This document shows positions 29,185 through 39,353 of a stretch of 64,000 bases of DNA, one piece after another. The position numbers were made by a program, and so were the translations under genes. The notes beneath the pieces were generated by a model. The model was not told where the DNA came from and ran no database searches. It saw only the letters and a list, made by a program, of their open reading frames with translations. Each line of letters opens with the position of its first letter. Positions within the stretch are counted from its first letter, which is position 1. This DNA comes from Escherichia phage T4_ev151. Where the stretch lies: sequence record LR597660, one strand, 5' to 3'.

Positions 29185-29658
29185 TTATTTGAATGATTTG
29201 ACGTACTGAATAGAGCCTTTGCTATTCACAAAGGCAATTTTACCATTTTTATTATACATGGTAGCAGTACGCTGATAACCATAAGTTTGTTTACCAGATT
29301 GATAACCAACTAATGCAAAATTATCTTCGCCCATTTTATTCTGTTTAGCGCGGATGCGTTCATGGCCATGTGCCATAAGAACCTTAGCATCACCAGTTGC
29401 AATGGATCGACGAGTTTTTTCATCTTCAACTGTATTAACAAAGTCGTCAAATGAATCAAATTTAGCATGAGATTTATTATACAGTTTTCCATCTACTGCA
29501 TAATTATATCCCTGTACATCCATCTCAACTTCTGTACCATCATCCAATACAGCAGTGATTTTTTGACCTTTTTTAAATTTCAAAAGATCAGTAAAAGATT
29601 CAGCAATAATTTGAGAATTAATAGCTGCTTCAGTAATAAATTCTTGATATGTTTTCAT
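29185..29658 (-). CDS. Internal protein family member (capsid-targeting sequence MKTYQEFITE)
   Basis: 157 aa; N-terminus MKTYQEFITEAA with LxE gp21-protease site; AAAGGAAA SD. Confidence 0.65.
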   Translation of the reverse strand: MKTYQEFITEAAINSQIIAESFTDLLKFKKGQKITAVLDDGTEVEMDVQGYNYAVDGKLYNKSHAKFDSFDDFVNTVEDEKTRRSIATGDAKVLMAHGHERIRAKQNKMGEDNFALVGYQSGKQTYGYQRTATMYNKNGKIAFVNSKGSIQYVKSFK

Positions 29659-29667
29659 ATGTTTCCT

Positions 29668-30084
29668 TTAAATGTAAATATTTTTGCCGTAATACTTGTA
29701 CCAGTGTGGCTTCATTAAAATTTTTTCATCAAGTCGTTGTTGACTCAATTTAATAGCTGATTTGCATGGATTATAATCATTTTTCCATTCTGCTGGAATA
29801 TCGCTGATGTCAGGAACTTCAGTATCTTTTATACTGAACCCGCGTTTTAAGCATTCCGTTATAATGTCTGATTGACGCTTTCGCAAAAATTCTAACTTAT
29901 CGTAAAAGAAAGTAACATGACCAGAACCTAAAATAAACTCGGAAGATATTTTAAAATCTTTAACCCGCTTACCATTTGCAACATGTTTACGAACTATACC
30001 AAAAACACGCGGCAATTCACGGTATTCTGCGATTAAATGTTGATCAGCAAGTTCAGATACTAAAGTCAAATTAATACGAGTCAT
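29668..30084 (-). CDS. denV: Endonuclease V (pyrimidine dimer glycosylase)
   Basis: 138 aa, [17 protein letters not shown]...; diverged from recalled T4 DenV; GGAGGG SD. Confidence 0.9.
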
Positions 30085-30143: not shown

Positions 30144-30674
<531 letters not shown>

Positions 30675-33654: not shown

Positions 33655-34218
33655 TTATTTACCTAGTTTAGTTATTATAGCTTCTGCAGCAGCTTTTAGC
33701 TTAGATGCAGTGTTAATACGATTTTTAATTTCAGTATACGCATCGCCAAGAACATCAAGGCTATCAGAATAAACACTTACACTATTGCGTTCGCTATTTG
33801 AAATAGAACCTTTAGTTTTACGATCAAAATCGGTGTACACGTCTTGAAGATCGCGGGCTGCCTTCTTTGCATCATCCAATGCATCAAGAGCTTTATTCAA
33901 AGCATTAACGTATTTTTTGGTGTCGAACATATTCTTAGAAATTTTAACAGGTGCACGTTCAGGAGTAGCTAATACAGATTTAGGAACCTGAGCGCCAGAT
34001 GCCAATTTCTTAGAAATTTTGAAAAATGCTTTATTGAATTTATTTTCTTGACTCATTGTAAAAGAACTATTATCGATGTTGTACATTTCAATAGCTTTAG
34101 CTTTCCACTTAAGAAAATCGCCGCGGTCTTTTGGGTCCAAGTGGAAGAATACTTTAGTAAGATCTGCTTCAGATGGTAATTTTGCTGCTTCGGTTAAAAA
34201 TTCTGCATAGGTTTTCAT
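33655..34218 (-). CDS. Internal protein family member (capsid-targeting sequence MKTYAEFLTE)
   Basis: 187 aa; N-terminus MKTYAEFLTEAA; AAGGA SD. Confidence 0.65.
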   Translation of the reverse strand: MKTYAEFLTEAAKLPSEADLTKVFFHLDPKDRGDFLKWKAKAIEMYNIDNSSFTMSQENKFNKAFFKISKKLASGAQVPKSVLATPERAPVKISKNMFDTKKYVNALNKALDALDDAKKAARDLQDVYTDFDRKTKGSISNSERNSVSVYSDSLDVLGDAYTEIKNRINTASKLKAAAEAIITKLGK

Positions 34219-35943: not shown

Positions 35944-36552
35944 TTATTTATTACGTGAAAAAGACTGTTCTATCAATTCTGGACACTTTCGTTCTATCCA
36001 TTTTCTAGCTTTTTGTGGGCTTATACCTATTATTTTAGCAGCTTTACTAACCCATCCAAATTTAGAATAATCGATTTTAACTAATTCTTCGTAAATTTCA
36101 TCAGTTAAAATCTTTTCATTAATATTTACCAGTAAATGATATAATTTATTATCATTAGCAATTTTAATGAATCTTTTATAGTTTCCGCCTTTACTTAAAC
36201 CTAATGAAGTAATTGCAGATGATATAGTAGCCGAATTTAATAGTGCGTTTAAAATTTCTTCATCACTAACATTATAACGCTTTCTATTATTTTTAATATT
36301 TTTACCAGCAAAAGTATCAGTTTGCGAATGGCAATTTGGGCATAATAATCTTAAATTTGATTTAAGATGATTTTTGTTATTTCCATCAATATGGTCTAAT
36401 TGTAGAACAATATGCTTATTTTGCCATTTTGAAATTTTACAAATTGCACACTCATATGGAAAAATATTTTCTTTTATTATTTTGTCTTTCAGCTTTCCTG
36501 TACTAAAATTTGGATGTTTTCCTTCAAAAATTTCAGCTAATTTAGTATCCAT
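35944..36552 (-). CDS. HNH homing endonuclease
   Basis: HNH motif LQLDHIDGNNKNHLKSNLRLLCPNCHSQTD; ATG 36552 (track TTG 36576); stop 6 nt from tRNA-Leu 5' end. Confidence 0.75.
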   Translation of the reverse strand: MDTKLAEIFEGKHPNFSTGKLKDKIIKENIFPYECAICKISKWQNKHIVLQLDHIDGNNKNHLKSNLRLLCPNCHSQTDTFAGKNIKNNRKRYNVSDEEILNALLNSATISSAITSLGLSKGGNYKRFIKIANDNKLYHLLVNINEKILTDEIYEELVKIDYSKFGWVSKAAKIIGISPQKARKWIERKCPELIEQSFSRNK

Positions 36553-36634
36553 AATATGATTCCCAATTATTAACAAAGGCTCTCAAACAAGAACCCTTGA
36601 TGATAGAGGGTATTAATCAGTGCGGTATGAGTTA

Positions 36635-37337: not shown

Positions 37338-37523
37338 CTATTCACCTTTAGAAATTTTATCCATAACAATAGCGATTAAACCAATTAAAAATGCTACTAC
37401 AAGTGAAAACACATTTTCTGCTGTAGTCAATAATCCACATATAAATCCAACAAACATTGAAAAACTAAAAGCGGAAGCAGAAATTGCAATAGCAACATTT
37501 CGAATTAATTCACAACGTTTCAT
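37338..37523 (-). CDS. Small membrane protein
   Basis: 61 aa, two hydrophobic segments, GAGGAG SD, own early promoter. Confidence 0.55.
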   Translation of the reverse strand: MKRCELIRNVAIAISASAFSFSMFVGFICGLLTTAENVFSLVVAFLIGLIAIVMDKISKGE

Positions 37524-37551: not shown

Positions 37552-37581
37552 ATAATATCACCACCCTATCTAAAAGTAAAC
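37552..37581 (-). promoter_or_regulatory. T4-type early promoter
   Basis: Minus strand GTTTAC, 18 nt, GGTGATATTATT; -10 flanked by 8-bp inverted repeat gatagggt/accctatc. Confidence 0.5.
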
Positions 37582-37815
37582 TTATTTTTTACGAAAAATT
37601 GATTTATATTTATCAGCCCATTTCTCGATGACTTTTTCTGGTCCATAGATAACAAAATAATCACCAAACTCTTCACCACCGAGCTGACCGAAATTATCTA
37701 ATGCATCACGAAGAACTCCATGAGGCATTTCGCCCATTTTATCTTTCTTACCAATGTAAATAAACTCAACTTTTACATCAGCAGCTTCAGCAATAAATTC
37801 TTGATACGTTTTCAT
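37582..37815 (-). CDS. Internal protein family member at the ipI locus (capsid-targeting sequence MKTYQEFIAE)
   Basis: 77 aa from ATG 37815 (GGAG SD); N-terminus MKTYQEFIAEAA; adjacent to 57B as T4 ipI. Confidence 0.65.
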   Translation of the reverse strand: MKTYQEFIAEAADVKVEFIYIGKKDKMGEMPHGVLRDALDNFGQLGGEEFGDYFVIYGPEKVIEKWADKYKSIFRKK

Positions 37816-37851
37816 TTTATTCTCCAATTTCACATTTGTTTTGATAGGGTA

Positions 37852-37881
37852 ATAGTATCACTACTAAAACCCCGTGTAAAC
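37852..37881 (-). promoter_or_regulatory. T4-type early promoter
   Basis: Minus strand GTTTACA, 18 nt, GTGATACTATT. Confidence 0.5.
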
Positions 37882-37893
37882 AACTTTGTGAAA

Positions 37894-38578
<685 letters not shown>

Positions 38579-38579
<1 letters not shown>

Positions 38580-39304
38580 TATAGTACCTTTAGTGTATTT
38601 TTAATTTTAGAAAAAAGTTCTTCAAGAGAACCATCGTTTGTAATTACTAAATCGCCATCACGAATTGGCAATCCAGCTTCTGTAATATGTGTATCATTGG
38701 ATTTTTGACCAGGACGAACTACATGAATTACTGTAGCACCCATCGCCCTAGCCGCATCCATTTCATGATCTTGACGAGTATCAGGAACGATATAATAATC
38801 ATAACCTGAGTTAAATTTATCAAGATAATCTAAAGCAAATAATTTTACCCAATACATGCGGTCGAAGTTATTAACAATCAAATCCGTACCTAGGGCTTGC
38901 ATCAGACGACGGACTGACCATTGATCTTCAATATTATTTATAACGTCAATAATCTTGTTAAATGCTACGGAATTAACTGATTCTTGTCCTTCGTCATCAA
39001 AAACAAACACATCCTTAATTGGGCTTTTACCATTAAGATAGCAAAATGCTTGTTCCATAATCGTGATTACTTCTGATTTAGTCAGATTTAAATTAGTCTC
39101 ACGATCATAGTCAATTCCTTCAAACTCTTTACGAGTTAAGCAAGGATAGTCAGTGTTTGCTGCAAATACTCCCCATGCATAAGCCAATGCATCCTTAATA
39201 GGACCAGCAAGTTGGTATTTAACTGCAGAATAATTGCTCATGATAAAATCAGCAGTAGTATCTTTTCCACTACGCTTTACACCGCTTAAAAAGATTAGTT
39301 TCAT
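38579..39304 (-). CDS. 1: Deoxynucleoside monophosphate kinase gp1
   Basis: 241 aa from ATG 39304; MKLIFLSGVKRSGKDTTADF P-loop; matches recalled T4 gp1. Confidence 0.95.
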
Positions 39305-39353
39305 GTGTTTCTCCTCAAATTTAATTAAGATTATAACACACAAAACTGAAGCA

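Follow-up and report, generated by a model that had tools for sequence, protein, structure and literature searches.

Which protein stands at the ipI locus of a T4-like phage when ipI itself is absent, and what might it do for the phage? We addressed this question in a 64,000-nucleotide stretch of Escherichia phage T4_ev151 (sequence record LR597660; the whole stretch is called the window below), a T4-like (Tequatrovirus) genome segment within which none of IPI, IPII or IPIII is encoded. A sequence-only reading had singled out a 77-residue open reading frame next to gene 57B as a conserved delivery leader fused to an unfamiliar cargo. In the published view, leader-bearing ip genes encode injected anti-defence proteins (PMC3012670, PMC12373910).

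Identity of the gene and its leader

The frame does adjoin 57B at the ipI locus, as that reading had it (Table 1). A gap of 78 nt separates it from 57B on its upstream side, and the gene order 1 - 57A - 57B - ip - trna.4 matches the ipI locus of T4. The 1.9 kb around it are 95–98% identical to many deposited phages, while for the surrounding 25 kb the best deposited coverage is at most 92%, at about 96–97% identity. The product of 57B matches the Acb1 family of Pfam, so the ip cassette array adjoins a known anti-defence gene. Many phage records still label 57B as 'RNA ligase' or 'hypothetical', and the Pfam match observed here is full-length. On the far side of trna.4, an HNH endonuclease ORF (35944..36576, minus strand; PHROG 14736, E 6e-124) comes directly after tRNA-Leu, at the position where T4, T6 and KAW1E185 have tRNA-Gln. 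ARAGORN detected only seven tRNAs in the window, and tRNA-Gln was not among them.

Table 1. Positions of ip6, its parts, its regulatory signals and the genes around it (window coordinates, except for the last line)
Feature	Position	Strand	Details
Gene 1, dNMP kinase	38579..39343	minus	
Late-promoter consensus TATAAATA inside gene 1	38935..38942	minus	nearest upstream late signal
57A	38349..38579	minus	
57B (Acb1 family, anti-CBASS)	37894..38352	minus	Pfam PF23474 Acb1, E 2.7e-60, profile positions 1-144/144
Upstream PeSL early-type promoter/stem-loop cassette, TTTACA-N17-TACTAT	37852..37880	minus	promoter scan; weak hairpin, z = -1.65
Shine-Dalgarno GGAG of ip6	37822..37825	minus	within conserved block GGAGAATAAAATG
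ip6 coding sequence	37582..37815	minus	77 codons + stop; translation MKTYQEFIAEAADVKVEFIYIGKKDKMGEMPHGVLRDALDNFGQLGGEEFGDYFVIYGPEKVIEKWADKYKSIFRKK
Capsid-targeting leader, codons 1-10 (MKTYQEFIAE)	37786..37815	minus	ends in I-A-E prohead-protease site
Mature Ip6* cargo domain (predicted product)	37585..37785	minus	67 aa, 7.7 kDa, calculated pI 6.8
Downstream PeSL cassette, TTTACT-N17-TATTAT	37552..37580	minus	8-bp stem GATAGGGT/ACCCTATC; -6 kcal/mol, z = -2.79
trna.4	37338..37523	minus	then trna.3, trna.2, HNH endonuclease ORF, tRNA cluster, segB
Leaderless Ip6 homologue P0012	L004 3001..3192 (Logan SRR21291451 contig)		in-frame stops upstream

The block GGAGAATAAA precedes the ATG at 37815, and the same ribosome-binding block stands before neighbouring genes, verbatim before trna.4, which makes 77 residues the likely product; its N-terminus, read from the 77-residue translation, is MKTYQEFIAEAA. 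The wider 16-nt block GGAGAATAAAATG is also found before trna.4 and is conserved ahead of ip genes in T4 and e11/2. An upstream GTG at 37833 gives a longer, 83-aa form of the frame in the ORF listing. We rejected this GTG-initiated product, since the spacing of the GGAG suits the ATG and most homologues begin with MKT.

Judged by its homologues, the gene is almost certainly ip6, a named member of the T-even internal-protein family. The PHROG 8111 profile ('internal virion protein') matches positions 1–77 of 77 (E 1.8e-50), and the homology to T6 Ip6 and PHROG 8111 runs through the whole mature domain. The protein is identical at 76 of 77 residues (99%) to the product of an e11/2 gene annotated 'Ip6 putative internal head protein', 84–85% identical to the Ip6 of VR7, VR20 and VR26, and 76% identical in the mature part to the T6 copy, which occupies the same position. 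The VR26 record is annotated 'similar to bacteriophage T6 Ip6', and an Ip6 or ipVI annotation is present in e11/2, VR7, VR20, VR26 and GiZh. Family members are 67–99% identical to the window protein, and the exact 77-residue sequence is already in NCBI (phages teqhad and KAW1E185), with 30 contigs found to carry it.

The mature domain was found by tblastn in 238 phage records, compared with 292 for IPI*, so that Ip6 is about as common as IPI in sequenced T4-like phages. At this locus, Karamvirus and Gaprivervirus phages carry more distant leader-bearing relatives (31–42% identity). When 1.84 billion representative proteins were searched with a profile, only five representatives matched Ip6, all of them small; three led back to sequences of T4-like phages, and nothing informative came of them. 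Sequence searches of Pfam, NCBIfam and the PDB with Ip6 gave no match. Already known, therefore, are the gene itself, the name of its family, its locus and the principle of a leader with interchangeable cargo; none of this is surprising or new. As a discovery ip6 has little weight, given a principle in the literature since 1994 and hundreds of GenBank records. Repoila et al. reportedly described leader-plus-variable-cargo genes at this locus in 1994 and noted that the conserved flanking blocks could mediate shuffling; such genes have since been covered in reviews. Later papers cite the study for IP loci that are polymorphic and for no fewer than 10 Ips identified through a common signal sequence (PMC3012670, PMC4122927).

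The N-terminus is a capsid-targeting sequence of the MKT(Y/F)(Q/K)EF type that T-even internal proteins carry. Residues 1–11, MKTYQEFIAEA, are 100% identical to the N-termini of T4 IPII and IPIII, and less like the T4 IPI leader, which has 19 residues (MKTFKEF...ITE; MKTFKEFTSTTTPVSTITE, with A following the cut). The leader closes with I8-A9-E10, which fits the (L/I)-x-E site of the prohead protease gp21 and is the sole [LI]xE motif in the precursor. All six reading frames of the window together contain the leader motif three times and 200 shuffles never do, so it is no chance match. In IPIII, the first 10 residues are enough to carry foreign proteins into the head, with residues 4 and 7 serving targeting and residues 8 and 10 serving processing (PMC9026906); Ip6, with Y4, F7, I8 and E10, has the same residue at all four positions. 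Among the Ip6 alleles, we observed the leader variants T3M (in e11/2) and Y4H (in P0002). The leader and cleavage site are otherwise kept in essentially all alleles across Tequatrovirus, Gaprivervirus and Karamvirus, including relatives of only 31–35% identity. By analogy with IPIII, then, Ip6 is very probably packaged and processed.

The sequence-only reading had described an internal-protein leader with an LxE site in front of a cargo different from that of IPI. The leader stands, with the amendments that its site is IAE rather than LxE and that it belongs to the IPII/IPIII sub-type, not to that of IPI. The cargo is leader-bearing and unrelated to IPI, as proposed, but it is far from unfamiliar, being the named and widespread Ip6.

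Mature domain, cassettes and variation at the locus

Residues 11–77 gave no BLASTP match to T4 IPI even at E ≤ 100, and the alignment of full-length Ip6 with IPI is confined to residues 1–14 (E 0.23). Against T4 IPII, T4 IPIII and e11/2 Ip5, BLASTP of the same residues returned noise only. The sequence-only reading was therefore right that the cargo is unlike T4 IPI, and in the search against IPI, IPII and IPIII that it had proposed, the mature region aligns to none of the three. Its further proposal, a structure prediction, delivered a confident compact domain and fell short of an informative structural relative. With a 12-sequence family alignment, AlphaFold2 gave a model (pLDDT 86, pTM 0.71) with a leader helix at residues 4–11 followed by a beta-alpha-beta-beta-alpha-beta domain, and the mature protein is thus predicted to adopt a generic ferredoxin-like fold. 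A Foldseek search of the model against the PDB found nothing at E ≤ 0.001 and only generic ferredoxin-like matches, and the predicted fold gives no functional clue. The top structural match in BFVD was VR7 Ip6 (TM 0.95), and the second viral-model match was a 31%-identical unnamed protein of 78 residues, probably an Ip6 family member.

Pairwise dN/dS over the mature part is 0.1–0.45 (0.69 for T6 vs KMB40), which identifies Ip6, with 12 acidic and 12 basic residues in its mature part, as a constrained protein under purifying selection. Two allele classes were observed, one comprising the window, e11/2, KIT03 and VR26 (GGEEFGDYFVIYGPEK) and the other T6 and KMB40 (AAEDYGDKIVVTGPAA in T6). Between the classes dN/dS is 0.3–0.45, higher than the 0.08–0.15 found within the window-type class. 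Thirteen of the 16 differences between the mature parts of the window and T6 proteins fall in residues 46–70, that is, in strands 2 and 3 and helix 2. This segment may be a specificity surface, which we offer as a guess.

One of the five representatives from the profile search, P0012 (63 aa, MKAQFIYIGKKDNMGEMPWEVLG...), is a homologue of the Ip6 domain without the leader. On contig L004, from a divergent T4-like phage, it has its own GGAG and its own early-type cassette (GTTTACT-N17-TAAGAT), and its neighbours are a baseplate gene, a DUF5417 gene and a MotA-like gene. As a module, the cargo domain thus occurs with or without a delivery tag and does not strictly need injection, which fits the finding that Ip1–3 work in trans.

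Alignment of the locus showed a common block before every ip gene and before trna.4, TAATTTCACAAAGTT-GTTTAC(A/T)-N17-TA(C/T)TAT-TACCCTATCAA...GGAGAATAAAATG. The PeSL consensus for the PST/T4 pair is TTTACW-N17-TAYWAT (PMC4122927), and both flanks of ip6 fit it and carry a stem-loop. The downstream cassette follows immediately on the ip6 stop codon, and trna.4 would be transcribed from it. Across the window, TTTACW-N16-18-TAYWAT occurs 12 times on the minus strand and not at all on the plus strand, and two of the 12 copies flank ip6. Two Ip6 alleles (P0006 and P0007, 98 aa) have lost the stop codon and carry 21 extra residues (ISLLLDRVVILLPYLLLRRIK); the read-through would be translation into the downstream promoter/stem-loop cassette. 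We found no late promoter immediately upstream of ip6. Gene 1 contains the late-promoter consensus once in the window and once each in T4 and e11/2, and no intrinsic terminator was found between the window copy and ip6, so that late transcription through 57A-57B-ip6, a prerequisite for packaging into proheads, is plausible.

The content of the 57B-trna.4 interval differs among phages, between conserved promoter and ribosome-binding blocks. It consists of ipI alone in T4, ip5-ip6 in T6 and e11/2, ipI-ip6 in KAW1E185 and KMB40 and also in ECML-134 and SCS4, ip6 alone in the window and KIT03, orf-ip9-ip5-ip6 in VR26, and orf-ip9-ip5-(Ip6-like)-ip in RZ. We considered Ip6 as a replacement allele of ipI and rejected this, given the tandem ipI and ip6 of KAW1E185, KMB40 and ECML-134/SCS4. 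Their tandem occurrence makes Ip6 a separate cassette able to stand beside ipI. Nucleotide homology between the window and T4 breaks at 37794, inside the leader-coding sequence, and at 37561, inside the downstream cassette; the exchanged part is therefore exactly the mature-coding part with the 3' end. Compared with e11/2, the window is without ip5, and its leader/cassette repeat (37795..37909) aligns to both e11/2 copies, as expected for recombination between repeats. We propose that ip6 is gained, lost and reshuffled through homologous recombination between the flanking leader-coding and promoter/RBS cassettes.

Two further leader-bearing ORFs were observed in the window. The first, of 157 aa (29185..29658, minus strand; MKTYQEFITEAA...), is IpIV/Ip4 (PHROG 3155; ipIV in PP01; 470 phage records). 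Its immediate upstream neighbour is denV (29668..30084), and because lysozyme gene e (30144..30638) abuts denV, the position that holds ipII and ipIII in T4 is empty here. The second, of 187 aa (33655..34218, minus strand), begins MKTYAEFLTEAAKL, a leader of the capsid-targeting type with an L-T-E site, and occupies the interval from the e.x genes to tRNA-Arg that holds rnaC/rnaD in T4. The ORF is 95–100% identical in 163 of the 164 matching phage records, including RB14, and 86% identical in the remaining one; every annotated record listed calls it a 'hypothetical protein', and PHROG 2280, to which it belongs, is of unknown function. This ORF resembles an internal protein that has gone unrecognised, encoded at a third locus.

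Proposed packaging, injection and target of Ip6

Transcription of ip6 would start at the gene's early-type promoter and probably, at the late stage, at TATAAATA in gene 1 as well. The 10-residue N-terminal capsid-targeting sequence would carry the 77-aa precursor into the prohead scaffolding core, and the prohead protease gp21 would cut after Glu10 (between I-A-E and A), leaving a 67-residue, 7.7-kDa, roughly neutral, ferredoxin-like Ip6*. This product would stay in the head with the DNA and be ejected with it into the next host cell, where it would most likely bind and inactivate one specific host defence protein. By analogy with Ip1–3, the likeliest target would be one subtype among the highly diverse GmrSD-type type IV restriction enzymes, which cut glucosyl-hmC DNA. 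Packaging, cleavage, injection and the anti-defence target are all steps that we infer from the better-known internal proteins. The literature searched, in which the name 'Ip6' is swamped by inositol hexakisphosphate papers, contained no direct evidence of Ip6 in virions or of its injection, and no virion proteomics for Ip6.

The analogy draws on three internal proteins with known targets. In E. coli CT596, IPI* blocks the type IV restriction enzyme GmrS/GmrD (PMC3012670, PMC9026906), and Silas et al. 2025 found that two further, very different GmrSD enzymes are inhibited by Ip2 and Ip3 and that cross-protection does not occur (PMC12373910). Each of Ip1–3 inhibits one distinct GmrSD and is also active when expressed in trans, and in the proposal of those authors GmrSD variants are what every protein of the two Ip loci targets (PMC12373910). 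On these grounds, and with the anti-CBASS gene 57B (Acb1) as the neighbour of ip6, an anti-defence role for Ip6 is likely. A GmrSD-type enzyme as its target is a possibility that we hold more tentatively. On balance we favour the statement as a whole, namely that Ip6 is packaged, injected and directed against a host defence, the likeliest though uncertain target being GmrSD.

Several observations weigh against this statement: the screen of ip4-10, the restriction of T6, the neutral pI, the generic fold and the leaderless homologue. According to the legend of Supplementary Figure 9 of Silas et al., ip4-10 gave no reproducible inhibition of the GmrSD panel (PMC12373910); the Ip6 allele in that screen may differ from that of the window. 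T6, which carries an Ip6 allele, is still restricted by the three GmrSD enzymes with known Ip inhibitors (PMC12373910). The question of what Ip6 targets was already recognised, and the experiments proposed in the sequence-only reading have in part been done. The panel comprised 15 synthesised groups, eight of them active, and the diversity of GmrSD is called enormous (PMC12373910). Because this diversity far exceeds the panel, the negative screen is weak evidence.

Some of these observations lend themselves to a reading in which Ip6 is injected and acts on something other than GmrSD, such as another modification-dependent nuclease, an abortive-infection sensor or a host-takeover target. The lack of reproducible GmrSD inhibition by ip4-10, as that legend reports it (PMC12373910), speaks for this reading. 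The mature domain is neutral, and ip6 adjoins the gene for Acb1, which counters a non-restriction defence. A leaderless homologue with an early promoter would suit a target whose importance extends beyond the moment of DNA entry. However, all three of the internal proteins with known targets hit GmrSD, and a screen of 15 groups, with eight active, says little about GmrSD diversity as a whole. The leaderless copy is also no argument against a restriction target, since Ip1–3 work in trans. We consider a target outside GmrSD rather unlikely. A narrower conjecture, to which we give about the same low credence, is that the window Ip6, which differs from that of T6 chiefly in the surface segment 46–70, inhibits a defence other than the GmrSD enzymes on the panel, possibly one that is not type IV, as a module that may be injected or, as on L004, expressed early.

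Internal proteins were first seen as abundant, basic, DNA-associated proteins (PMC9026906), and Ip6 might accordingly act as a filler in the head or associate with its DNA, helping the core to assemble or the DNA to condense, and have no role in the infected cell. Head assembly is slower in IPIII mutants (PMC9026906), and lysines of internal proteins contact DNA phosphates (PMC3012670). Yet 12 acidic and 12 basic residues and a pI of 6.8 would make Ip6 a poor counter-ion, and the presence and context of ip6 vary among phages that are 95–98% identical, which argues that it is dispensable for assembly. The compact predicted fold, the purifying selection and the clustering of variation in one segment are more like a binding protein. 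A purely structural role therefore seems very improbable. Least probable of all is that the leader is vestigial and Ip6 an early cytoplasmic accessory protein that is not usefully packaged: its own early-type promoter, the lack of a late promoter immediately upstream, the leaderless homologue and the leader changes T3M (e11/2) and Y4H (P0002) could be read this way, but the leader and cleavage site are kept in essentially all alleles across three genera, the leader is identical to the 10-residue tag that suffices for packaging (PMC9026906), and TATAAATA lies upstream within gene 1 in the window, T4 and e11/2.

Being about as common as IPI among sequenced T4-like phages, Ip6 is a reasonable candidate for searches for the host defences that limit T-even phages, a matter relevant to predicting host range in phage therapy. 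Ready constructs for comparison exist in the two allele classes and the leaderless homologue.

Comparison with known systems

The flanks of ip6 resemble the PeSL mobile regulatory cassettes (Arbiol 2010; Comeau 2014), with the same consensus and stem-loop on both sides. They show no notable difference from PeSL cassettes; at this locus the leader-coding sequence, too, is a recombination boundary.

With T4 IPI, Ip6 shares the locus, the size class and the promoter/RBS cassettes, and by analogy it would also share the logic of an N-terminal leader, gp21 cleavage and injection. The differences lie in the proteins themselves. The IPI leader has 19 residues and is of a different sub-type, and the mature parts are unrelated, with a basic pI of 9.0 for IPI* against a near-neutral 6.8 for mature Ip6. 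IPI* folds as two beta sheets flanked by terminal helices (PMC3012670), in contrast to the ferredoxin-like fold predicted for Ip6, and no IPI structure was among the PDB matches of the Ip6 model. Neither mature-region similarity to IPI nor the IPI* fold was thus found in Ip6.

T4 IPII and IPIII have the identical 11-residue N-terminus and presumably the same packaging and injection route. They differ in their mature parts, which are unrelated to that of Ip6, and in their position, since they are encoded at the second ip locus, in the e-denV interval that stands empty in the window. Their targets are known, namely the GmrSD from ECOR21 and ECOR17 (PMC12373910).

T6 Ip6 and its relatives (PHROG 8111) are matched over the full length, and in every locus inspected Ip6 is the last ip gene before trna.4. 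Relative to T6, the window carries an allele of the GGEEFGDYFVIYGPEK class instead of the AAEDYGDKIVVTGPAA class, and its Ip6 stands alone at the locus, where neither Ip5 nor IPI accompanies it.
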